Assembly: GCA_963766675.1 (NCBI GenBank)
Contig: CAVYBA010000002.1
Location: forward strand, 2,170,806-2,234,805
Source of the DNA: an uncultured Chloroflexia bacterium
GTDB lineage: Bacteria; Chloroflexota; Limnocylindria; Limnocylindrales; CSP1-4
Reading direction: 5' to 3'
Length of the DNA stretch: 64,000 nucleotides
The first letter of the stretch is position 1. Each line of letters starts with the position of its first letter. The notes beneath the pieces were generated by a model. It searched no databases and was not told the origin of the DNA. It saw nothing but the letters and a program-made list of their open reading frames with translations. Shown here piece after piece: positions 904 to 45,812 of this stretch. Made by a program: the position numbers and the translations under genes.

Positions 904-2574
904 TCAGCCGACCCTGACAAGCGCGCGGCCGAGATCGACCGTCGCCTGCGGCGAGACGGCGGCCATCAGTTCCGGGCGGTGGGTGATGAAGATGGCGGTC
1001 CGGCCGCGCGCAGCTTCGAGCAGGTCGGCCGTCAGGGCGGTCGCGGTCGCCTCGTCGAGGTGCTCGGTCGGCTCGTCGAAGATGAGGATCGGACGATCGG
1101 CCAGGATCGCGCGAGCCAGCTCGATCCGCTGGCGCTGACCGCCCGACAGTCGAGCACCGGCTTCTCCGACGAACGTACCCAGGCCGTCCAGCAGCGTGTC
1201 GATCCAGTCGAGCAGGCGCGCTCGGCCGAGCGCCGCGCGCACGTCGTCATCGGACGCCCCGGGTCGCGCCAACCGGACGTTCTCGGCGATCGTCGAGTCG
1301 AACAGGTGGGCGTCCTGCCCGCACAGGCCGACGACACGCCGGACGTCGTCGGCCGCGAGACGGCGGAGGTCGACAGATCCGGACGCGGCGACCAGCTCCA
1401 CCGTGCCGGCCGACGGATCGAGGAACCGCAGCAGGACGGCGGCGAGCGTGGTCTTGCCTGAACCGCTGGGACCGGTCACCAGGGCGCGCTCCCCTGCCCC
1501 GAGCTCGAGATGAAGGCCGTCGAGGACGTCCGGTGCCGTGGCCGCGTAACGCGCCGCAAGGCCCCGGATCCGGATCCCGTAGGGGCCTGCGGGCAGGGGC
1601 TCCGGGTCGGCGGGATCGGCGACGGGATCCGGCCGGGCGAGGATCCCCGCGAGGCGACCGGCTCCAGCCCGCAGCCGGGTCAGTTGCTGCGCGACCGGCG
1701 CCAAGGCGCCGACCAGCTCGTGCGCGGCGATCGGGAGCAGCACCACGACGGCCAGCGCGACGCCACCGACGGCACCGGCCCGGACGGCGACCATGCCTGC
1801 CACGAGCGCCAGCCAGACGGCGGCGCCGCCCGACAGCGACGCGACCAGGATCCCGACTCCGGCGCCCCCGGCCGATCGCGCCTCGGCCCGCTCGAGGTCG
1901 GCCGAGCGGGCGGCCAGCCGGGACAGCTCGGGACGGTCCACGCCGGCGGCGACCAGCTCGGGCGCCGCCTGGAGGAGCTCGAGCGCCGCGGCCGACAGGG
2001 CTCCGCGGGCGGGCGCGATGCGGGCCTCGGCCCGACGGGCGAGGGCCCAGCCGGCCAGTGGCGCACCGATCGCCGACACGACGAGGGTCACCGCCAGGAC
2101 CGCGCCTGCGAGCGGAACGAGGGCCGCGACCACGAGCACCGTCGCGGCACCGGCCACGACCGCGATCGCGCTCGGCATGACGATCCGCGGCCACAGGTCG
2201 ACCAGCCCGTCGACGTCGGCCACGAGACGCGACAGCAGGTCGCCCGAGCGCTGGTCGGCCAGCCCGGCCGGGGCCAGTCGTTCGAGCCGTCGATACGCGC
2301 GAGAGCGGACGGCGGCGAGGATCCGGAGCGAGGCGTCGTGCGCGGGCAGCCGCTCGGCGTACCGGAGGGCGCCGCGCGACACGCCAAAGGCGCGGACCGC
2401 CACGATCGCCACCATCAGGTCGAGGATCGGCGGCTGCTGGGCCGCCCGCGAGATCAGCCAGGCCGAGGTGCCGGTCAGCGCGATCGCGGAACCCGCCGCG
2501 CCGATCCCCGCGAGCAGCGACAGGGCGAGCCGGCCACGCACGGTCCAGCCGAGCCGGAGGACCTCGCGGATCAT
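904..2574 (-). CDS. cydC: thiol reductant ABC exporter subunit CydC
   Basis: ORF 904..2997 trimmed to the ATG at 2574 (MIREVLRLGW...), which overlaps the cydD stop as ATGA. TM domain plus Walker A GPSGSGKTT, signature LSGGQRQR and Walker B ILIFDEPT. Last gene of the cydABDC order. Confidence 0.85.
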   Translation of the reverse strand: MIREVLRLGWTVRGRLALSLLAGIGAAGSAIALTGTSAWLISRAAQQPPILDLMVAIVAVRAFGVSRGALRYAERLPAHDASLRILAAVRSRAYRRLERLAPAGLADQRSGDLLSRLVADVDGLVDLWPRIVMPSAIAVVAGAATVLVVAALVPLAGAVLAVTLVVSAIGAPLAGWALARRAEARIAPARGALSAAALELLQAAPELVAAGVDRPELSRLAARSADLERAEARSAGGAGVGILVASLSGGAAVWLALVAGMVAVRAGAVGGVALAVVVLLPIAAHELVGALAPVAQQLTRLRAGAGRLAGILARPDPVADPADPEPLPAGPYGIRIRGLAARYAATAPDVLDGLHLELGAGERALVTGPSGSGKTTLAAVLLRFLDPSAGTVELVAASGSVDLRRLAADDVRRVVGLCGQDAHLFDSTIAENVRLARPGASDDDVRAALGRARLLDWIDTLLDGLGTFVGEAGARLSGGQRQRIELARAILADRPILIFDEPTEHLDEATATALTADLLEAARGRTAIFITHRPELMAAVSPQATVDLGRALVRVG

Positions 2575-4253
2575 GCGGCGGCCGACCCGTCGTCGTTGTC
2601 CGTCGCTGCGCGCGATGTCACCTCGACGTTCCGATCGGCCACGGCGATGGCGGCCGGCCGGTGGGCGACCAGGACGACGATGGTCCTGGCCTCGCGCGCA
2701 CGATGAGCGATCGCCGCCAGGACCACCCGCTCGGTCTCTTCGTCGAGGCCGGCAGTGGGCTCGTCGATGAGCAGGACCGCCGGATCGCGCGCGAAGGCCC
2801 GGGCGACGGCGACGCGGCGCCTCTCCCCACTCGACAGCCCGAGGCCGCCCTCGCCGAGCGGGTACGACAGCTCGAATCCGCTCAACCCGACCGCGTCGAG
2901 CGACTCGCGAATGGTCGCGTCCGTCGCCTCCGGCGCGATCAGCCGGACGTTGTCGGCGACAGTGCCCGTCACCAGGAACGGAACCTGCGGGACCCATGCG
3001 ACGTGGCGCCGCCAGGCGATCGGGTCGAGCTCGGCGACCGAGGTCGTCTCGCCGCCTTCGCCAGTCAGGCAGATCGTGCCAGCGTCGGGCCGGACGAGCC
3101 CGAGGATGGCCAGTAGCAGCGTGCTCTTGCCGGCGCCGCTCGGCCCGGTCAGCGCCACGATCTCCCCCGGCCGGACCTCGAATGAGGCGGCGGCCGGCGC
3201 CAGCAGGTCGCGGCCCGGCTGGCGGACGGCGACACTTTCGATGCGCAGTGTCGCCGTCCGCAGGTCGGGGAGATCGGCCCGTGACCCGGTGTCCGGCAAC
3301 GGCGAATCGAGCAGCTCGAAGGCCGATCGCATGGCGGCCTTCCCCTCCTCGCTCGCGTGGAAGTGGACGCCCAGCTGGCGGAGGGGCAGGTACGCCTCCG
3401 GCGCGAGGATCAGGACGAACAGCCCGGTCCGCAGATCGAGGCTCCCTTCCACCAGGCGGATGCCGATCCCGACCGCGACCAGCGCCACCGACAGCGTCGC
3501 GAAGAACTCGAGCGCGAACGCCGACAGGAAGGCGGTCCGCAGCGACGTCATCGTCTCGACCCGGTAGGCATCGGTGACCCGCACGAGCGCCTCGGCCTGC
3601 GCCCTCGCGCGGCCGTACGCCTTGAGCGTGGGCAGACCCTGGACGACGTCGAGGAAATGATGGGCGAGCCGGGTGAGCGCCTGCCAGCGGCGCCGGCGCC
3701 GGCCCTCGACGGCCCGGCCGATGAGGACCATGAAGACCACGATGAGCGGCACCGTCAGCCCGACGGTCAGCGCGGCCACGAGGTCGGCGCCGGCGATCGC
3801 GAGCACGACGGCGACCGGCACGATCACCGCCAGGGGCAGCTGTGGCAGGTACCGGGCGTAGTAGGCGTCGAGCGAGTCGACGCCCCGGGTCGCCAAGGCG
3901 ACGATCTCCGCCGAGCCGTGCCCGCTCGCCCGCCCTGCGTTGAGCTGAACGCCACGTTCCAGGATGGCGGCACGGAGCCTGGCCTTGACGGACGCCGCTG
4001 CGCGATGGGCGCTGGCCTCGCCGGCCCAGGCGGCCACCGCGCGCGCAACCAGCACGGCGCCGAGGGCCAGCAGCGTGGTGGTTAACCCGTCGAGATCGGC
4101 GCCGGCCAGGAAGGTCGTGCTGATCGCGTCGGCCAGCAGCGCCGCCTGGGCGATCGCCAGCGCGGCCATGATCACCCCGAGCGCCACGAACACCCCGAGC
4201 CGGACGACCGCGGCGCGGCTCAGACCGAGCAGGCGGCGTTCGAGCGGCGTCAC
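2571..4253 (-). CDS. cydD: thiol reductant ABC exporter subunit CydD
   Basis: 560 aa. TM domain, Walker A GPSGAGKST, signature LSSGERRR, Walker B LLIDEPTAGLD. Lies directly downstream of cydB. Confidence 0.85.
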   Translation of the reverse strand: MTPLERRLLGLSRAAVVRLGVFVALGVIMAALAIAQAALLADAISTTFLAGADLDGLTTTLLALGAVLVARAVAAWAGEASAHRAAASVKARLRAAILERGVQLNAGRASGHGSAEIVALATRGVDSLDAYYARYLPQLPLAVIVPVAVVLAIAGADLVAALTVGLTVPLIVVFMVLIGRAVEGRRRRRWQALTRLAHHFLDVVQGLPTLKAYGRARAQAEALVRVTDAYRVETMTSLRTAFLSAFALEFFATLSVALVAVGIGIRLVEGSLDLRTGLFVLILAPEAYLPLRQLGVHFHASEEGKAAMRSAFELLDSPLPDTGSRADLPDLRTATLRIESVAVRQPGRDLLAPAAASFEVRPGEIVALTGPSGAGKSTLLLAILGLVRPDAGTICLTGEGGETTSVAELDPIAWRRHVAWVPQVPFLVTGTVADNVRLIAPEATDATIRESLDAVGLSGFELSYPLGEGGLGLSSGERRRVAVARAFARDPAVLLIDEPTAGLDEETERVVLAAIAHRAREARTIVVLVAHRPAAIAVADRNVEVTSRAATDNDDGSAAA

Positions 4254-4280
4254 GAGGGACGAATCGCTGGAGGACGCCGG

Positions 4281-5300
4281 TCAGGCGGCGCCTTCCGCCT
4301 CCTCGTCACGGGGCAGCTGGTCGAGGCCGACGCGGCGCCGGAAGACCCAGTAGGTCCAGCCCTGGTAGAGCAGGACGAACGGGGTGAAGATCAGCGCGAC
4401 CACGGTCATGATCCCGAGCGTGTACGGCGTCGACGAGGCGTTGCTGGTCGTCAGGCTGTAGGCCGCGTCCGTGCTGGACGGCATCACGTTCGGGAAGAGC
4501 GCCGCGAACAGGGCCACGGCCGCGAAGGCGATCGTCAGGGCCGTGCCGATGAACGCCCAGCCCTCGCGCCCGAGGCGGTTGGCGACCAGCGCCCCGACGA
4601 GCGCGAGGGCCGCCAGGACGGACATCACCAGCGACCCGGTGTCGCCCCGTTGCTCCTGGGTCCAGGCCAGGAAGACGACCGCCACGACGGCCGTGGCGAT
4701 GCCGGCGATCCCGGCCGTCCGGTTCGCCCGGGCGCGCAGCTCGCCGGTCGTCTTGAGCGCGAGGAAGACGGCGCCGTGGGTCACGAACAGGCCGAGCGTC
4801 GTCAGGCCGCCGAGCAGCCCGAACGGGTTGAGCAGCGTGAACAGGTCGCCCGTGAACTCATGCTTCGCATCGATCGGCACGCCGGCCACGATGTTCGCGA
4901 AGGCGACGCCCCACAGGATCGCCGGCAACAGCGAGCCGAGGAAGATGGCGGCGTCCCAGCGGAGCCGCCACGGGGCGTCGACGCGCTTGCCGCGGAACTC
5001 GAACGCGACGCCGCGGACGATCAGCCCGATCAGGATCAGGAAGAGCGGCAGGTAGAAGCCGCTGAACAGGGTCGCGTACCACTCGGGGAAGGCGGCGAAC
5101 GTGGCCCCGCCGGCGACCAGCACCCAGACTTCGTTGCCGTCCCAGACCGGGCCGATCGTGGCGATCACGGCCCGCCGCTCGCGCTCGTTCCGGCCGAGGA
5201 TCGGCAGCAGGATGCCGACCCCGAAGTCGAACCCCTCGAGCACGAGGTAGCCGACCCACAGGAACGCGATGAGGCCGAACCAGACCGTGGTGAGCTCCAT
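4281..5300 (-). CDS. cydB: cytochrome d ubiquinol oxidase subunit II
   Basis: ORF trimmed to the ATG at 5300 (MELTTVWFGLIAFLWVGYLVLEGFDFGVG...), the classic CydB N-terminus. Polytopic membrane protein. The Arg-rich upstream extension was rejected. Confidence 0.9.
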   Translation of the reverse strand: MELTTVWFGLIAFLWVGYLVLEGFDFGVGILLPILGRNERERRAVIATIGPVWDGNEVWVLVAGGATFAAFPEWYATLFSGFYLPLFLILIGLIVRGVAFEFRGKRVDAPWRLRWDAAIFLGSLLPAILWGVAFANIVAGVPIDAKHEFTGDLFTLLNPFGLLGGLTTLGLFVTHGAVFLALKTTGELRARANRTAGIAGIATAVVAVVFLAWTQEQRGDTGSLVMSVLAALALVGALVANRLGREGWAFIGTALTIAFAAVALFAALFPNVMPSSTDAAYSLTTSNASSTPYTLGIMTVVALIFTPFVLLYQGWTYWVFRRRVGLDQLPRDEEAEGAA

Positions 5301-5311
5301 CTCGACGCTCC

Positions 5312-6715
5312 TCAGTACGCGAAGACGGCCGGGCGCTCGGCGTCGTCGGCGTCGCCGCGGCCTGGCTCGCTGGGCAGGCCCGCCCGGATCCGACGGAGCA
5401 GCAGCCCGACCTCGACGACTGCGAGGCCGCCGTACAGCAGCGTGAACGTGACGAGCGTGATCGCGACCTCGAGGCTCGACGTGCCGGGCGACACGCCCGC
5501 GGAGGTGTCCATCAGCCCGAACACGATCCACGGCTGGCGACCGAGCTCGGTGAAGATCCAGCCGAGCGAGTTCGCCGCCAGCGGCAACAGTGGCAGGGCC
5601 ACGGTCGTGGCAACCACCCAGCGGTTCGGCCGGACCGCCCGGCCGCGCCGCATCAGCCAGAGCAGCCAGGCCGCGGCCAGGGCCGCGAGGCCGCCGGCGC
5701 CGATCATCAGCCGGAACGTCCAGTACGTGACCGGGATGATCGGCCGGTAGTCGCCCGGACCGTACAGATCCTGGTAGGCCGCCTGGAGGTCGTTGATCCC
5801 CTCGACCTTGCCGTTGAGGTCCCCGGTTGCAAGCAAGGACAGCACGTTCGGGATGCGGATGGAGAACAGCTCCTTGCTGCCGTCGAGGCTCCCGATCGTG
5901 AACACGGAGAACGAGGCGGGCTGCGACGTGTCGTAGAGGGCCTCGGCAGCCGCCATCTTCATCGGCTGGACGCTGGTCATGACCCGGGCCTGCTGGTCAC
6001 CCGTCACCAGGACGAGCAGACCCGCCACCAGCACGGTCGCCGCCCCGACCCGGGCGGCCGAGCGGAATGTCGAGTCGTCCGGCCCTGAACGGCGGGACAA
6101 GCGCCAGACGGCGATCGCCGCCACGAACGCCCCGGCGGTCAGCATCGACGCGGCGATCGTGTGCAGAAAGGTGATGACCGCCAGCGGGTTGGTCAGCACG
6201 GCGATGAAGTCGGTCAGCTCGGCCCGACCGACGGTCGCGTTGTACGAATACCCGACCGGGTTCTGCATCCAGGCGTTGGCGGCCAGGATGAAGTAGGCCG
6301 ACAGGATCGTCCCGATCGCGGCAATCCAGATCGTGGCCAGGTGAAGGCGTCGCGGCAGCCGATCCCAGCCGAAGATCCAGAGCCCGAGGAAGGTCGACTC
6401 GAGGAAGAACGCGAGGAGTCCCTCGATCGCCAGCGGCGCGCCGAAGATGTCGCCGACGAACCGGCTGTACGTGCTCCAGTTCATCCCGAACTGGAACTCC
6501 TGGACGATCCCGGTGACGATGCCGAGCGCGAAGTTGATGAGGAACAGCTCCCCGTAGAACCGGGTCAGCCGAAGCCAGGCCGGGTTGCCGGTCCGAACCC
6601 AGACGGTCTGGAACGCCGCGACCAGGAAGCTCAGGCCGATCGTCAGCGGGACGAACAGGAAGTGGTAGACGGTGGTGATGCCGAACTGCCAGCGGGCCAG
6701 GTCAAGGGCGTCCAC
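5312..6715 (-). CDS. cydA: cytochrome bd ubiquinol oxidase subunit I
   Basis: 467 aa. MDALDLARWQFGITTVYHFLFVPLTIGL... is a canonical CydA start. GAGGAGG RBS lies upstream. Confidence 0.92.
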   Translation of the reverse strand: MDALDLARWQFGITTVYHFLFVPLTIGLSFLVAAFQTVWVRTGNPAWLRLTRFYGELFLINFALGIVTGIVQEFQFGMNWSTYSRFVGDIFGAPLAIEGLLAFFLESTFLGLWIFGWDRLPRRLHLATIWIAAIGTILSAYFILAANAWMQNPVGYSYNATVGRAELTDFIAVLTNPLAVITFLHTIAASMLTAGAFVAAIAVWRLSRRSGPDDSTFRSAARVGAATVLVAGLLVLVTGDQQARVMTSVQPMKMAAAEALYDTSQPASFSVFTIGSLDGSKELFSIRIPNVLSLLATGDLNGKVEGINDLQAAYQDLYGPGDYRPIIPVTYWTFRLMIGAGGLAALAAAWLLWLMRRGRAVRPNRWVVATTVALPLLPLAANSLGWIFTELGRQPWIVFGLMDTSAGVSPGTSSLEVAITLVTFTLLYGGLAVVEVGLLLRRIRAGLPSEPGRGDADDAERPAVFAY

Positions 6716-39841: not shown

Positions 39842-40530
39842 GCCACCTCCCCACGCTGGTCGGCCACGCCGCGCGGCAGCGTGACGTACTCCGGCACGAG
39901 ACCCGCCAGGTCGTCGCCGGTCTCGCCACGCAACCGATCCGCACCCATCCGGATCAGTGCCGGTCCGAGCTCGCGGCGGGCGGCATCGCCGCGAGCGACC
40001 GCGTCGGCCGGGGCCCGGCCCTCGAGATCGACCGCGATCAGCCACTCCCCGGGCGCCAGCTCCGGATCCGTGGCACCCGGCAGCAGCCGTGACCCCTGCC
40101 CGTGCCGCGTCATGACCCGATCGTAGGGACCGGCCGGGAGGAGGAGGACCGGCTGCCCCCCCGGTGGGCGATCTGCCCCGCCCGCGGCGCGTGCGACCGC
40201 CGCTCCGAGGAGTGCCTCGGCCGTCGACACACCCGCGATCGGCAGCCCGAGCCCGTGGGCGAGACCCTTGGCGGTCGCGATCCCCACCCGCAGGCCAGTG
40301 AAGGCCCCGGGGCCCGTCCCGACCACGATCCCGACCAGCCGCGACCGGCGCAGGTTCTGCTCGCCGAGGAACCGGGCGATCGACGGCAGCAGCGTCTCGC
40401 CGTGACGGTAGCCGGCGGCCCACGTGCTGAGCCCGTCGATCTCGCCGTCGATCGAGCCGCTGGCGATGACCACCTGGGTCGTCGCGGTGTCGATGGCGAG
40501 GATCGCCCGGCGGCGGCCGTCGTGGCTCAC
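39820..40530 (-). CDS. tsaB: tRNA threonylcarbamoyladenosine biosynthesis protein TsaB
   Basis: ORF trimmed to the GTG at 40530, which overlaps the tsaE stop. ILAIDTATTQVVIA, GPGAFTGLRVGIATAKG. Confidence 0.85.
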   Translation of the reverse strand: MSHDGRRRAILAIDTATTQVVIASGSIDGEIDGLSTWAAGYRHGETLLPSIARFLGEQNLRRSRLVGIVVGTGPGAFTGLRVGIATAKGLAHGLGLPIAGVSTAEALLGAAVARAAGGADRPPGGQPVLLLPAGPYDRVMTRHGQGSRLLPGATDPELAPGEWLIAVDLEGRAPADAVARGDAARRELGPALIRMGADRLRGETGDDLAGLVPEYVTLPRGVADQRGEVAWSHDRR

Positions 40531-41000
40531 GCGATCGCCGCCAGGTAGCGGTTGAGCGCCGGGGAACCGGCGCGCACGGTGATCGACCGAGGCTCGTCGC
40601 CGGCGCCGTCGATGGCCACGTCGAGCCGTTCCAGCGGGAGGGCGTCGGCGAGGCGGTCGGGCCACTCCACGAGCGTGACGCCGAGCGTCTGCCGGTCGTC
40701 GATCAGCCCACCGCCCAGCGCGTCCGCGGCGTTCGACAGCCGGAAGAGGTCGAGGTGGAAGAGCGGCAGCCGTCCGGCGTACTCGGCCATCAGGACGAAG
40801 CTCGGCGAGACGATCGTGTCGGTCACGCCGAGGCCGGCGCCGAACGCCTTGGCCAAGTGGGTCTTGCCCGCGCCGAGCTCGCCCCACAGGCACACGAGAT
40901 CACCGGGCCGTGCGGCCGTCGCCAGCCGGCGGCCGAACGCCGATGTCGCGTCGGGGTCCGGGCAGACGAGGTGCCGTTCGAGCGGGGTCAGGGCGGCCAT
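40527..41000 (-). CDS. tsaE: tRNA threonylcarbamoyladenosine biosynthesis ATPase TsaE
   Basis: 157 aa. P-loop GELGAGKTHLAK, SPSFVLMAEY. Confidence 0.88.
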   Translation of the reverse strand: MAALTPLERHLVCPDPDATSAFGRRLATAARPGDLVCLWGELGAGKTHLAKAFGAGLGVTDTIVSPSFVLMAEYAGRLPLFHLDLFRLSNAADALGGGLIDDRQTLGVTLVEWPDRLADALPLERLDVAIDGAGDEPRSITVRAGSPALNRYLAAIA

Positions 41001-41107
41001 GTCTCCCGAGCGTAGCCGAAGGAGAGCCGGTTCGTCGGTCCGGCATCGTTTCGCGGTCGCTGCCCGAGAGCCGGCCGTGCCGGCGGCGCGCGGCGACCTT
41101 CCGGGAT

Positions 41108-42100
41108 TCAGACGAACCGTTCCAGGTCGCCGAGCGGGACGGCCGCCACGGATCCGTCCGCGAACCGCACCAGTCCCGCCTCCAGCTGCACGCCACCGGC
41201 GAACCGGCGCTGCCCGATCGCTTCGACAAAGCGGCCCTCCCGGCCGGCCAGTGACCCGCCGCGGACGCGGACGAGGTCGGCCGGCGGCGCCGGGACCTGG
41301 AGGTTCGGCACGTCGAAGACGAGCATCGGCGGGTCCGCCACGATCGCCACCTCATGCCCGACGAGGCTGGTCAGGACCGTCAGGATGCCGCCGGCCAGCG
41401 GACGGCGGACCGCGCCTTCGAGGACCAGCACGGCGAACGGCGGCAGGCGATGCAGCGCGGACCGCTGACGGGCCTCCGAGGCGAGGTAGTCGCGGCGCTC
41501 CTTGCTCGACAGGCCGGTCACGATCACGCCGCGGACGCCCATCGCCCGGGCGCGGGTCAGGGTCTCGGCATCGACCCGCGAGCCGACGACGAGGATCGAC
41601 CCGGCGCTGCCGATATCGAGCGACCCCGCCCGGAGTTCGCCGTCCGGGGTGGCCTGGAGACGTCCGCGGGTGGGTCCGCCCAGGACCACGATGCCTCGGA
41701 TGCCGCGACCGGCAGCGCGGACCGTGATCGCGGTGCCGGGCCGGACGTCGCGGACGATCCCCGCGAACGGCACCTCCAGCGAGTCGGCCAGCTCGCCGGT
41801 GGCGACCCGCCATCGCCCACGCCAGCCGAAGACGTACTCACCTCCGGCGGCCTGGCCGTCACGAGCACCCGAGGCCCCGGTCCAGCGACGCCCGGGTCGC
41901 GGCGTGGCGGTCGCCGGCACGGTCAGTTCGTCGAGCCTCGGATCGCGCAGTCGCTGGGCGATCGGCGCCCCGACGACGACCGAATCGCCCGTCGCGACCA
42001 CCGGTCGATCGCCGGGCGCCAGCCGGAACACGACGTCGACGGGTGCGCTGACCAACGCCCGCGCCGGAACCAGGCGCAGGTCGAGGCCCGGGCCGCTCAT
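41108..42100 (-). CDS. hypothetical protein (330 aa)
   Basis: ATG at 42100 overlaps the upstream stop (ATGA). Normal amino-acid composition, no diagnostic motif. N-terminal GLDLRLVP...ATGDSVVVGAPIAQ is vaguely barrel-sandwich/NqrA-N-like. Confidence 0.5.
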   Translation of the reverse strand: MSGPGLDLRLVPARALVSAPVDVVFRLAPGDRPVVATGDSVVVGAPIAQRLRDPRLDELTVPATATPRPGRRWTGASGARDGQAAGGEYVFGWRGRWRVATGELADSLEVPFAGIVRDVRPGTAITVRAAGRGIRGIVVLGGPTRGRLQATPDGELRAGSLDIGSAGSILVVGSRVDAETLTRARAMGVRGVIVTGLSSKERRDYLASEARQRSALHRLPPFAVLVLEGAVRRPLAGGILTVLTSLVGHEVAIVADPPMLVFDVPNLQVPAPPADLVRVRGGSLAGREGRFVEAIGQRRFAGGVQLEAGLVRFADGSVAAVPLGDLERFV

Positions 42101-43701
42101 GGCTCGCCTGACGACCACACGGCGGCCTGCCAGCCCTCGAGGAGCTCGCCTCGCAGGTCCGCACGGTCCGGCAACTGGAGCGGGACATCGCGCAGGTCGA
42201 CCAGCAGGCCGCCGAGACCCCCGGTCACCTCGACTGCGAAGCGCCGTCCCCGACCGCCGAGGCGGACGGTGTCATGGAACTGGAGCTCGGCGGTCGCCGA
42301 TGCCCCGGCCGGCAGGTCCAGCATGGACAGGCTGCCCGGTCGCAGGTCGAGGTCGCGCGTGCCAAGCTGACCGTGCAGGTGGAGCGCCCCGACGCTCCGT
42401 CCGCCTCGCAGCCCGGCCGGAGTCACCACGGTCCCCAACGGGGCGAGCAGGTCGTCGACGAGGTCGGTGATGACCGCCCGGCGCTCGGTGGCATCGGCGA
42501 TCGAGCCGATCGGCGCGAGGATTCGGGCGTGATCGAGCGCATATTGGCTCGCTCCCGACCGGCGGAGCACGTCGGCGAGCGCCAGGACCACCGACGGCCC
42601 CGAGGCGATCGACCACACGCCGCCGCTGGCGACGACAAGGTCGGCCGCCGGCCGGGCGTACCAGTCCGGCGTGGCCTCGGCAAGGCAGCCGAGCGCCGAC
42701 CGGGCGGCCGCCAGCCGCAGGTCGACGCCGTCGCCCGCGACGTCGCCCCACGGGGCGATGCGCAGCTCGCGGAGTCGGTCGCGGAGGCGGTGTCGATCGC
42801 CCGCGCCGCTCGACCAGGTCGCGACCCGATCGACCACGCCGTCGTCGGGGTCGGACGGCGCCAGCCCGGCGGCCGGGACGACCGCCAGGTCGGCGGCAGC
42901 CAGGCCGTTCCCGACGGCCGGCCAGGCGGCCACCCGGGTGCCGCCGTCGAACCCGACCTCGACGACGTCGATCCGGCGATCGAGGACCTCGGCGAGGGTC
43001 AGTGCCGCGGATCCGAGGGCACGACGCGAATCGTCCGTCGCCAGGGCCAGGTCGAGCAGGAGCTCGCGCAGCTCGGCGCCGGGCTGGCCGGTCGCGGCGG
43101 CTGCGGCGGTCACCACCGGCCCGGGACGGGCCGCGACGTCACCGAAGGCCGCCAGCTGGTCCGCCATGCCGCCGGCGAGGACCACGGTCAGCTCGGGTCG
43201 CCGTTCGGCCGCTGCGCCGAGCAGCGCACCCAGTTCCCCGAGCGCGCGGCGCTCGTCGGCGCCCGGGGGATCGCCGGCCCCGGCGAGGATCCCGTCGACC
43301 GAGGCATCGAGCAGCATCGTCGACATGGCCAGCGGATCGGTCGTCTCGGGGCTCGCCGAGACCGTTCGCCAGCCGCTCCTCGACGCCGCCGCGACGAGCG
43401 GTCCGAGGGCGCGTTCCGAGCCTGCCACGACCGCCAGGCGGCGGGCCGGCTGGCTGGCGACGTCGACGCGGGGCAGGTCCGCCGGCACCGCACCCGCCAG
43501 GCCGAGCGCCGCGGCCAGCTCCGGATCCGCCGATCGAACGCGTTCGATCAGGATTGCGGCGACCGCATCGGGATCGGCTCCGATCGGCAGCGCCAGCGAG
43601 CCGATCAACCGCCAGCGGCCAGCCACTCGACCGACGAGCCCGGCGGCAATCGTCGCCGCCCCCGCGTCCTGGGTCAGAAACGCCCGCGGTTCAGTGGTCA
43701 C
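42097..43701 (-). CDS. hypothetical protein (534 aa), possible degenerate ASKHA/GlmL-MutL-like ATPase fold
   Basis: Blocks spaced like ASKHA phosphate-1/phosphate-2/adenosine motifs: LTQDAGAATIA, VVEVGFDGGTRV and LVVASGGVWS. This is weak, motif-level evidence only. Confidence 0.5.
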   Translation of the reverse strand: MTTEPRAFLTQDAGAATIAAGLVGRVAGRWRLIGSLALPIGADPDAVAAILIERVRSADPELAAALGLAGAVPADLPRVDVASQPARRLAVVAGSERALGPLVAAASRSGWRTVSASPETTDPLAMSTMLLDASVDGILAGAGDPPGADERRALGELGALLGAAAERRPELTVVLAGGMADQLAAFGDVAARPGPVVTAAAAATGQPGAELRELLLDLALATDDSRRALGSAALTLAEVLDRRIDVVEVGFDGGTRVAAWPAVGNGLAAADLAVVPAAGLAPSDPDDGVVDRVATWSSGAGDRHRLRDRLRELRIAPWGDVAGDGVDLRLAAARSALGCLAEATPDWYARPAADLVVASGGVWSIASGPSVVLALADVLRRSGASQYALDHARILAPIGSIADATERRAVITDLVDDLLAPLGTVVTPAGLRGGRSVGALHLHGQLGTRDLDLRPGSLSMLDLPAGASATAELQFHDTVRLGGRGRRFAVEVTGGLGGLLVDLRDVPLQLPDRADLRGELLEGWQAAVWSSGEP

Positions 43702-43759
43702 GTGGCCATGCTACGCGTCACCGGCCCCGCTCACCCGAGAGGGAAATCGCGGCGAGCGC

Positions 43760-44053
43760 CTATGCGTCCCAGGTGGGTTCGTCCTCGTCGGATTCCTCGA
43801 GCCGGGCGATCAACAGCTCGATCCCGGTGTCGTCGGCGAGGATCTCGCTCGCGGACGCGAGCTCGCCACCGAACACGCCGCGGAGCACCGGATCGAAGAA
43901 CAGCATGGCGTTCGCGCCGAGGGCCCGATACGGGCGGCTGGCCTCGAGGAAGTGGACCGCCGGACCGGCCATGCCGAGGAGCTCGATCTCGCGCGCTACC
44001 TGCTCTACCAGCTCGTCGCGCTGCTCCTCCGACGGGCCGACCGCGCCGTTCAC
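43760..44053 (-). CDS. hypothetical small acidic protein (97 aa)
   Basis: GTG at 44053 overlaps the macro-domain gene stop (GTGA). High G/C at third codon positions. No known motif. Confidence 0.45.
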   Translation of the reverse strand: MNGAVGPSEEQRDELVEQVAREIELLGMAGPAVHFLEASRPYRALGANAMLFFDPVLRGVFGGELASASEILADDTGIELLIARLEESDEDEPTWDA

Positions 44054-44586
44054 GTCGCAGTCCTGCCGTGCACGGCGATCGCCGGGACGTCGGCAAGCGC
44101 CTCGGCGAAGGCGGCGTACGCGGCTGCGCCCCGCAGGGCGAAGACCACGTGGACGATCGAAGGGCTCGCGGGCAGCTCGTCACGGACGGTCGCCACGGTC
44201 ACCCGGGCGCCTTCCTCGAGCGGGAACCCGCCGACCCCCGAGCCGAGTGCCGGAAAGGCGATGCTCGTCACGTTCATTTCACGGGCCCGCGCCATGGCGC
44301 TCCGAACCGCCGATTCGATCGTCGCGGCGCTCGTCCGCCGGTCGCGGTCGAGCGAGACCGCGTGGATCACCATCCGGGCGGCGAGCGTACCGGCCGGGGT
44401 CACGACCGCACCGCCCAGCGGCGCCGGTCCCTGGCGGACGGCCGCGAACTCGATCGCATCGCCGCCGGCGCGCTTCAATGCGCCGCCGACGCCGGTCGCC
44501 ATCCACAGGGTGGTATTGGCGGCGTTGACGATCGCGTCGACTTCGAGGTCGCAGATATCGCCGTTCCAGAGTTCGATTTGCGCCAC
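44050..44586 (-). CDS. macro domain protein (ADP-ribose / O-acetyl-ADP-ribose binding or hydrolysing)
   Basis: 178 aa. GDICDLEVDAIVNAANTTL and ATGVGGALKRAGG motifs. GTG start shares 1 nt with the alr TAG stop. Confidence 0.85.
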   Translation of the reverse strand: MAQIELWNGDICDLEVDAIVNAANTTLWMATGVGGALKRAGGDAIEFAAVRQGPAPLGGAVVTPAGTLAARMVIHAVSLDRDRRTSAATIESAVRSAMARAREMNVTSIAFPALGSGVGGFPLEEGARVTVATVRDELPASPSIVHVVFALRGAAAYAAFAEALADVPAIAVHGRTAT

Positions 44587-45812
44587 TAGCCACTCCGCTC
44601 CGTGAGCGTCCGCAGACCGACCGGTCCGGCCGAGGCATGGTACACCCGAGGTACCCGCCGAGCCATGCCGCTGACGACCTCCCAGCTGTTGGTGTTGCGC
44701 TCCTGCGCCAGCTCGGCGACGGTGATCCGCTCATCGCCGCTGCCGCCGACCAGCACGAATTCGTCGGCCACGCCGACCGGCGGCCCGGGCACGTCGGTCA
44801 CGTCGGCCATGACCGCATCCATCGCGACGTTGCCGACCAGCGGGACCCGGCGGCCGCGGACGATGGCCGACGCCCGGTTCGACAGCTGCCGCGACCAGCC
44901 GTCGCCATAACCGAGGGGCAGGGTCGCGATCCGGCTCGGGCGGCTCGTCCGGAAGGTCGGGCCGTAGCTGATTCCCCAGCCCGCCGGCAGATCCGCGACA
45001 CGGACCGGGCGCGCGACGAGCGACATGACCGGCCGGAGGCTGCCCGGGATCACGCTCGAGATCCCGGCTTCGCGCAGCTCGTCCGGCTCGAGCCCATAGA
45101 GGGCGAGCCCGGGCCGGACACCGCCATACGCCGCGACGCCGTCGACGAGCAGCGCAGCGCTGGCGGCGACGTGTCGGGGTGGCAGCTCGATGCCGGCGGC
45201 GACGATCGCGTCGACGACGGCCTCGAACCGATCGACCTGGAGCCCCGTCCCAGCCGAGTCCTCGACCGCCTGGAGGTGGGTCCACAGCCCGCCCAGCCGG
45301 CAGCCGGGCGCCATGGCGATCCGGCCCGCGGCCTCGACCGCGGCGGCACCCGCGAAGCCGCCGCGACCCAGCCCGGTCTCCACCTCGAGCTCGAGCTGGA
45401 GCGTCCGGCCTTGGGCGAGGGTCGCCGCGGTGGACAGCAGCTCGTCGAGCAGGACCGGATCGCCGGCCGTGACCGAGATCCGACGCTGCGCTGCATCGGG
45501 GACAAAGACCGCCGGGATCGGGTAGAGCACGAGGATGGGCGCCTCCACGCCTCCCGCCCGAAGCTCCAGCGCCTCATCCATCGTGGCGACGCAGAATCCG
45601 TCTGCCCCCGCCGATTCGAGCGCTCGAGCCACGGGCCCGGCGCCATGGCCGTAGGCATCGGCCTTGACCACGGGACGGACCGGGACGCCCGGACCGGCCA
45701 GCCGTCCGAGCAGCCGGAGATTGGCGACGAGCGCGTCGAGGTCGATCTCGAGCCAAGCCGTTCGCGGCAGCGGCGGCAACCCGGCGGCGGCGAGCCGGGC
45801 CTCGATCGACAC
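44586..45812 (-). CDS. alr: alanine racemase
   Basis: 408 aa. PLP-lysine motif VKADAYGHG. C-terminal beta domain. Confidence 0.9.
   Translation of the reverse strand: MSIEARLAAAGLPPLPRTAWLEIDLDALVANLRLLGRLAGPGVPVRPVVKADAYGHGAGPVARALESAGADGFCVATMDEALELRAGGVEAPILVLYPIPAVFVPDAAQRRISVTAGDPVLLDELLSTAATLAQGRTLQLELEVETGLGRGGFAGAAAVEAAGRIAMAPGCRLGGLWTHLQAVEDSAGTGLQVDRFEAVVDAIVAAGIELPPRHVAASAALLVDGVAAYGGVRPGLALYGLEPDELREAGISSVIPGSLRPVMSLVARPVRVADLPAGWGISYGPTFRTSRPSRIATLPLGYGDGWSRQLSNRASAIVRGRRVPLVGNVAMDAVMADVTDVPGPPVGVADEFVLVGGSGDERITVAELAQERNTNSWEVVSGMARRVPRVYHASAGPVGLRTLTERSG

Follow-up and report, generated by a model that had tools for sequence, protein, structure and literature searches.

The Gene Pair and Its Locus

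This study concerns a pair of adjacent genes on the minus strand of a 64,000-nucleotide (nt) stretch of DNA, referred to as the window, which belongs to contig CAVYBA010000002.1 of an uncultured Chloroflexia bacterium of the class Limnocylindria. The genes encode proteins of 534 and 330 amino acids (aa), termed A534 and B330. In agreement with an earlier reading of the same DNA (the original prediction), they are preceded by alr and a macro-domain gene and followed by tsaE, tsaB, rimI and tsaD, all in the same orientation. By gene order and homology, the pair appears to be what is left of a module of seven genes, four of them for membrane proteins, a point that the original prediction had overlooked.

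The open reading frame (ORF) of A534 begins with GTG and runs from 43701 to 42097, and that of B330 begins with ATG and runs from 42100 to 41108. The two share an ATGA stop/start overlap at 42097..42100 on the minus strand, and the same 4-nt overlap is found in 44 of 73 related loci. An alternative reading of B330 from a GTG at 42118 would give a protein of 336 aa; the homologues are 328-330 aa in length. The guanine-plus-cytosine (GC) content at codon positions 1, 2 and 3 is.83,.58 and.87 for A534 and.81,.56 and.88 for B330, which is the pattern also seen in alr and tsaD. The plus-strand ORFs overlapping the pair do not show the coding-type pattern at the third position (GC3), consistent with their original dismissal as junk. 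The ratio of nonsynonymous to synonymous substitution rates (dN/dS), measured against the closest species, is 0.14-0.21 for A, 0.05-0.20 for B and 0.03-0.10 for s97, a small gene immediately upstream, compared to 0.15-0.25 for alr. This constraint at the level of housekeeping genes indicates that A, B and s97 are functional genes. The overlap at 42100-42097, the GC3 periodicity and the dN/dS values of the pair (0.05-0.21) together bear out the view that the two genes are real and coupled.

At E<=1e-3, A534 and B330 match more than 1200 and more than 1500 database clusters, respectively, a signal far above chance. All of these relatives are labelled hypothetical and have no Pfam domain, and the named ones come from metagenome-assembled genomes (MAGs) of Candidatus Limnocylindria or Limnocylindrales. 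When one genome was scanned for each species, 300 genomes proved to contain relatives of B330, and the best 80 of these, which provided the species loci for comparison, are all Limnocylindria-type Chloroflexota. The actinobacterial frame of reference used in the original prediction is therefore the wrong one. The gene order nnrD-alr-macro-s97-A-B-tsaE-tsaB-rimI-tsaD is kept in all 80 loci as far as the contigs reach, so that the conservation of the pair and of its place between alr and tsaE, proposed earlier as a check, was found. A lies directly 5′ of B wherever a locus spans both, namely in the 80 species genomes, 9 further contigs and 12 metagenome loci, and about 300 species have the reading frames of the pair intact. 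B can be 94% identical between species in which alr is 84% identical.

A Seven-Gene Module in a Sister Lineage

A profile of B330 was searched against 1.8 billion representatives and recovered diverged full-length relatives, of which the most diverged subfamily also belongs to Limnocylindria. In the arrangement termed the full type, the same syntenic slot is occupied in the order alr, macro, a gene for a small protein of 81-85 aa, DUF6754, three genes for proteins of about 205, 270 and 214 aa, A′, B′ and tsaE, where A′ and B′ are the positional orthologues of A534 and B330. Four of these products are membrane proteins: the DUF6754 protein has two transmembrane segments, the ~205-aa protein about six, the ~270-aa protein one at each terminus with a soluble middle part, and the ~214-aa protein about five. 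Among them only DUF6754 has a family assignment. The genes for the membrane proteins lie at 2427-5319 in locus L081 and at 3388-6310 in locus L087, and most gene junctions of the module overlap, with stop and start codons overlapping or nearly abutting. The full module occurs in L081, L085 and L087 and in 66 metagenome loci that were retrieved in a scan with DUF6754 proteins, and the arrangement is the same in every metagenome locus with visible flanks. The module is thus verified within Limnocylindria. A literature search on DUF6754 and PF13941 (the GlmL/MutL family discussed below) found no papers, and no study of the module was found.

The window represents the other arrangement, termed the reduced type, in which s97 is followed by a spacer of 28-175 nt and then by A. 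Homologues of the four membrane proteins were found neither in the 64-kb window nor in any reduced-type locus. Moreover, no DUF6754 relative lies outside the alr-tsaE slot among the 66 metagenome loci, as judged by exact peptide patterns, which diverged copies would escape. The reduced-type lineage is the species-rich one, and the full type forms a deep sister lineage. The most economical reading of this distribution is a single deletion of the four membrane genes in the ancestor of the window clade, and we infer that the genes were deleted rather than moved. A faster rate of change in A and B following the deletion was also considered and is not evident, since the window and full-type proteins share 30-37% identity for A and B, compared to 33-61% for the neighbouring housekeeping genes.

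The gene preceding A in the window, s97 (43760..44053, minus strand), encodes an acidic, non-membrane protein of 97 aa, overlaps the macro-domain gene by 4 nt and shows the GC3 value of a coding frame. It was missing from the neighbour list of the original prediction, which was otherwise correct with regard to the flanks. The gene is the most conserved of the block, with 72-96% identity across 73 loci, and its product has a conserved core, RPYR...F..PVLR..GG, and no transmembrane segment. No match to s97 was obtained in Pfam, NCBIfam, PADLOC or PHROG. Its homologue in the full-type loci is the 81-85-aa gene upstream of DUF6754 (46% identity, E 3e-13), and on this homology s97 is the first gene of the ancestral seven-gene module.

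The membrane genes of the full type also bear on the envelope-related role that had been suggested on the basis of neighbouring cell-wall genes. This suggestion is unsafe because a housekeeping block of about 20 genes is syntenic throughout the class, so that adjacency to alr and other cell-wall genes is not specific. The membrane-protein module provides a different and better basis for a link to the envelope or membrane.

Fold and Family of A534

Direct searches of A534, B330 and s97 against Pfam, NCBIfam, PADLOC and PHROGs gave no usable match, and the profile searches proposed in the original prediction accordingly connect neither protein of the pair directly with a characterised family. 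Sequence-profile searches of the PDB with three alignments (A1, A2 and A4) yielded nothing significant; the matches to PsaD and to 1-aminocyclopropane-1-carboxylate (ACC) deaminase were rejected as compositional noise. An internal homology of A with B was likewise rejected (hhalign probability 0.2).

Structural comparison was more informative. The AlphaFold2 (AF2) model of A534 has a mean predicted local distance difference test score (pLDDT) of 64 and is usable for residues 1-360, with values near 90 for residues 90-200. It contains two beta-beta-beta-alpha lobes and an alpha/beta insert, and the strands at residues 7-39 and 244-275 are accompanied by the expected helices. Foldseek returned 129 PDB matches at E<=1e-3, and the top ones are all ASKHA proteins. 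The best match is FtsA (1e4g, E 3e-6), followed by Hsp70/DnaK, Ppx/GppA, acetate kinase, acetone carboxylase and benzoyl-CoA reductase. The ASKHA matches to FtsA, Hsp70, Ppx/GppA, acetate kinase and acetone carboxylase have E values of 3e-6 to 1e-4 and a probability of about 1.0. Owing to the inserts and an unmodelled C-terminus, the template modelling (TM) scores stay low, at 0.2-0.4, and the subfamily therefore cannot be named from the fold of A534 alone. With both lobes present in the model, A534 is predicted to be an ASKHA-fold protein, and the ASKHA fold claimed for the large protein in the original prediction finds support in the matches to FtsA, Hsp70, Ppx and acetate kinase.

The motifs of the ASKHA fold occur in A534 in the proper order, as D12-x-G14, E248-x-G250 and G360-G361, and are conserved across 68 species. 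The phosphate-1 hairpin, residues 8-20 (FLTQDAGAATIAA; 43642..43680, minus strand), keeps the invariant or nearly invariant D12 and G14; from the family motif DxGSxWTK it has lost Ser, Trp and Lys, which leaves DAGAATIA. Reduced-type loci show DAGAATIAA (the window), DRGTATNAV or DEGAASTSA at this position, whereas full-type loci show DxGS[TA]WTKA, for example DHGSTWTK and DxGSAWTK. The PF13941 phosphate-1 motif, DxGSTxTK, is absent from A534. The degeneracy of the first phosphate block had been noticed in the original prediction, and alignment A4 attributes it to the loss of these three residues. In the phosphate-2 hairpin, residues 244-257 (IDVVEVGFDGGTRV; 42931..42972, minus strand), E248 stands in place of the family Asp and G250 is invariant, as the full-type motif G[VI]D[LVI]GARY corresponds to VE[VI]G...R in the reduced type. 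The adenosine motif, residues 354-363 (DLVVASGGVW; 42613..42642, minus strand), contains G360, which is invariant in both types. Beyond the classical length of GlmL, A534 continues in a beta-rich C-terminal extension of residues ~420-534 (42100..42444, minus strand), which is modelled with low AF2 confidence. This extension carries an invariant GG.GL.VD.R..P..LP.R block and is the part best conserved between reduced and full types (37% identity over residues 327-548).

The family of A534 can be approached through its positional orthologue. A534 and five other reduced-type A proteins do not match PF13941 even at E<=10, whereas the full-type A′ proteins (549-565 aa) match it with E values of 2e-24 to 3e-26 and 86.5 bits against a cut-off of 27; the match is thus obtained for 3/3 full-type and 0/6 reduced-type proteins. 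A′ aligns with A534 over the full length (30% identity, E 5e-21), and hhalign joins the A534 family (A1) with the full-type A′ family (A5) at a probability of 99.8 and E 2e-28 over 502 columns. For the GlmL equivalog models NF040745 and TIGR01319, A′ reaches 38.7 bits against a cut-off of 475 and 41.5 against 204, respectively, which is far below both, and A534 matches neither model. In the plasmid collection, the only match of A′ was an E. coli protein annotated as 'glutamate mutase L' (E 2e-7). Because A′ matches PF13941 and aligns with the A534 family, A534 is placed by homology as a diverged relative of the GlmL/MutL branch, being neither a model-level member of PF13941 nor a GlmL equivalog. 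The likeness to GlmL/MutL pointed out in the original prediction therefore holds by way of the positional orthologue (PF13941, E 2e-24).

The Partner Protein B330

B330 is 62-95% identical across the 80 species loci, and its family is joined with the full-type B′ family by hhalign at a probability of 99.9 (E 1e-31). The window protein itself matches no family, and B′ has no match in the plasmid collection. The AF2 model, built with 35 close homologues, has a pLDDT of 48 and is too poor for the N-terminal and central folds.

Three regions could be distinguished. The N-terminal region, residues ~20-135 (41696..42043, minus strand), resembles a barrel-sandwich hybrid domain by marginal matches. 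The diverse B alignment (A3) finds the hybrid-motif domain of the RNA polymerase beta′ subunit in the PDB (2auj_D, E 0.006), as well as NusG domain II and biotinyl carriers, all marginal, and single divergent B members match RnfC_N (6e-5), NQRA_N (7e-4), Biotin_lipoyl and RPOC_hybrid in Pfam, where the window protein has no match. The central alpha/beta region, residues ~160-262 (41315..41623, minus strand), comprises about 100 residues with an invariant E179-x3-R-A-R-A-x-G and is the most conserved part of B330; searched alone, it matched nothing in the PDB or Pfam. The C-terminal region, residues ~272-330 (41111..41287, minus strand), may form a KOW/SH3-like barrel, again on marginal matches. 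In this region Foldseek finds the KOW domains of eS4, Spt5 and RfaH and Tudor barrels with E values of 0.03-0.1 and a target TM-score of at most 0.74 over about 55 residues, the local pLDDT being 62-84. Pfam KOW is matched at E 0.003 in 3 of 27 B members, and uL24/L26 KOW appears in B profile searches at E 0.4-1.3. The two resemblances proposed originally for B330, a barrel-sandwich or RnfC/NqrA-like N-terminus and an SH3/KOW-like C-terminus, are thus weakly favoured by these values.

A Candidate Leaderless Promoter

A −10-like hexamer, TAGCAT, lies at 43713..43708 on the minus strand, 6 nt before the GTG of A534, and is a candidate promoter. The element CCGGGTAGCATG-N4-G-GTG, at 43702-43713 of the window (minus strand) and in related loci, contains no Shine-Dalgarno sequence. 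The form TA[GC][CG]AT occurs in 66 of 70 reduced-type loci, in 60 of them with exactly 6 nt to the start codon, and the 28-175-nt spacer around it is otherwise variable. In 12 full-type loci no motif of this kind precedes the genes of the module. We infer from this pattern that the box is an internal promoter giving a leaderless A534-B330 mRNA. A terminator scan of 40900-44200 found none, including no terminator-like hairpin in the spacer between B330 and tsaE, and no public sequencing run holding the stretch was found. As a clean candidate for a leaderless promoter of the reduced-type clade, TAGCAT-N6-GTG comes from a class that has no cultured members.

A Proposed Soluble Switch Left by the Module

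Taken together, we propose with moderate confidence that A534 and B330 are the soluble core of the seven-gene module, of which the four membrane genes were lost and the pair was retained as a cytoplasmic nucleotide switch. In this proposal, A and B would form a stoichiometric cytoplasmic complex. A would serve as a nucleotide-gated two-lobe switch, for which the carboxylates D12 and E248 are still present, as are the glycine loops with G14, G250 and G360/G361, and the movement of the lobes of A could be passed through its conserved C-terminal beta domain to B, which would act as a three-domain adaptor. Both the loss of the PF13941 match and the erosion of the motifs track the split between the reduced and full types (0/6 versus 3/3), and the loss of the phosphate-1 Ser and Lys suggests a probable change or weakening of ATP turnover by A. 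Following the deletion, the pair may have gained its own promoter (TAGCAT, 6 nt before the GTG) and with it a leaderless mRNA, and it could now work in soluble form, as a switch or a chaperone-like complex, in the absence of the ancestral membrane complex.

Several points weigh against this proposal. The contact between A and B is deduced from genetics alone, the B330 model having a pLDDT of 48 and the C-terminal third of A being unmodelled. ATPase activity may persist despite the missing Lys and Ser of the motif, and Hsp70 is likewise without a Lys at the phosphate-1 position. Even the function of canonical GlmL is poorly established. The membrane genes could sit elsewhere in the genome, as their search covered the window and the reduced-type loci, and the metagenome test for DUF6754 used exact peptide patterns that would miss diverged copies. 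In addition, a generic sigma-70 consensus scan of 40900-44200 does not call the TAGCAT box.

The alternative closest to the data is that the machine is still intact, the four membrane genes having moved to another locus where their products still receive A and B. The extreme conservation of B and s97 would be expected if all contacts had been kept, and the search for membrane genes covered the window and the loci. However, a Limnocylindria-type DUF6754 outside the alr-tsaE slot was seen in 0 of 66 metagenome loci, although reduced-type genomes are far commoner in the databases; the 64-kb window contains no homologue, and the motif changes in A and the new promoter coincide with the rearrangement. 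Relocation is therefore regarded as unlikely. A role of the pair for its neighbours, either in the threonylcarbamoyladenosine (t6A) pathway of TsaBDE or in the supply of D-alanine and cell-wall precursors through Alr, seems less likely again. In its favour, the ASKHA fold also occurs in TsaB and TsaD, KOW domains are a frequent component of translation factors, the C-terminus of B may be KOW-like, and the place of the pair between alr and tsaE-tsaB-rimI-tsaD does not vary in either the reduced or the full type. Against it, synteny extends over the entire stretch from glmS to glmU throughout the class, so that adjacency says little, and Kae1/TsaD is not among the top Foldseek matches of A534.

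The membership of A′ in PF13941 could also be taken to mean that A534 and B330 form a reactivase or chaperone of a coenzyme-B12 enzyme, a role that has been put forward for GlmL/MutL, EutA and DdrAB. We consider this very improbable, as A′ stays far below the GlmL equivalog cut-offs (38.7 versus 475 and 41.5 versus 204 bits), none of about 100 loci has a mutase, lyase or cobalamin gene in the operon, the ancestral partners are membrane proteins, and B matches no reactivase small subunit. That the pair is a decaying, functionless leftover of the deleted module might be read from the eroded ATP motifs and the lost PF13941 match, yet with dN/dS of 0.05-0.21, intact frames in about 300 species and the higher identity of B than of alr (94% and 84%), this explanation is effectively refuted by the selection data and can be given almost no credence.

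A further step beyond the soluble-switch proposal is conceivable, although we hold it to be rather doubtful. The window lineage might represent the natural minimal form of an ASKHA-driven membrane machine, in which, once all four membrane subunits had been cleanly deleted, s97, A and B have long been kept under leaderless expression with a changed nucleotide site. The core would then be autonomous and probably of a housekeeping nature, and the membrane complex would be an optional output module. If true, the A-B core may switch a cytoplasmic client via the KOW and barrel-sandwich adaptor.

Comparison with Known Systems

The nearest named relatives are GlmL/MutL (PF13941, TIGR01319 and NF040745) and the Or-4 ornithine-degradation relative (NF040744). 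GlmL/MutL has been described as a chaperone for the reactivation of glutamate mutase (PMC4682846). A534 shares with this group the ASKHA fold, the alpha/beta insert after the first lobe and the order and spacing of the phosphate-1, phosphate-2 and adenosine motifs, and its orthologue in the sister lineage passes PF13941. It differs in the absence of a model match, the loss of the phosphate-1 Ser and Lys and about 120 aa of an extra C-terminal beta domain, as well as in its obligate 330-aa partner, ancestrally also four membrane proteins, and scores far below the equivalog cut-offs. Glutamate mutase genes, which form the setting of GlmL between glmS and glmE, are present in none of the loci examined.

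In DdrA-DdrB/GdrAB and EutA, an ASKHA large subunit is combined with a separately encoded smaller partner, which is the likeness to the present pair; unlike in these systems, B330 appears to be a three-part protein (barrel-sandwich-like, alpha/beta and KOW-like) and there is no context of a B12 enzyme. Neither DdrAB/GdrAB nor EutA is among the top 50 Foldseek matches of A534. FtsA and PilM are ASKHA proteins with membrane partners, as the ancestral module would suggest for A, and FtsA is the best Foldseek match. However, the TM-scores are 0.2-0.3, the insert domain is different, and A534 has no amphipathic tail, no PilN-type partner and no evidence of polymerisation. For B330, the marginal profile and fold matches at both ends recall the N-termini of RnfC/NqrA and the KOW domains of NusG, Spt5 and uL24, but B330 has no Fe-S or flavin modules and no NGN domain, and its central E-x3-RARA-x-G domain matches nothing.

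These comparisons could be of use beyond the present locus. ASKHA proteins of the GlmL/MutL type are labelled in databases as helpers of B12 enzymes, whereas in Limnocylindria, which is among the most abundant uncultured classes of Chloroflexota in soil and freshwater, they appear to be tied to a fixed partner and membrane proteins rather than to such enzymes. The two layouts in Limnocylindria resemble a natural deletion experiment, in which the soluble pair persists without adjacent membrane genes at a housekeeping level of constraint, and the role of the A-B core may thus be separable from that of the membrane complex. Matched protein sets are available for this purpose, the full type with canonical ATP motifs and the reduced type with eroded ones.

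Flanking Genes and Additional Observations

Upstream of the pair, alr lies at 45812..44586, preceded by nnrD in the same flank, and the macro-domain gene lies at 44586..44050 between alr and s97. No macro-domain match was found at this position in L028, L055, L056 and L059, where the remaining order is unchanged, and full-type locus L081 is also without a gene called macro there. The macro gene therefore appears to be dispensable and outside the module. Downstream, tsaE lies at 41000..40527 and is followed by tsaB, rimI and tsaD. The spacer between B330 and tsaE (41001-41107) is 107 nt long; in related loci its length varies between a few nt and about 200 nt.

Two contigs labelled Saccharimonadales/Patescibacteria, L054 (DASPHN010000302.1) and L070 (DATNFQ010000020.1), carry the full Limnocylindria-type operon with 57-86% protein identity and about 70% GC; these MAG contigs have probably been mis-binned or mislabelled. 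Several other operon-bearing contigs are labelled Thermomicrobiales or Anaerolineaceae. Apparent fusions of A, B, TsaE and TsaB in the representative library (P0287, P0309, P0332, P0365 and P0371; 750-1160 aa) were rejected as Arg/Pro-rich frameshift read-throughs from long-read MAGs; such proteins swell the match lists and are at risk of being taken for domain fusions.

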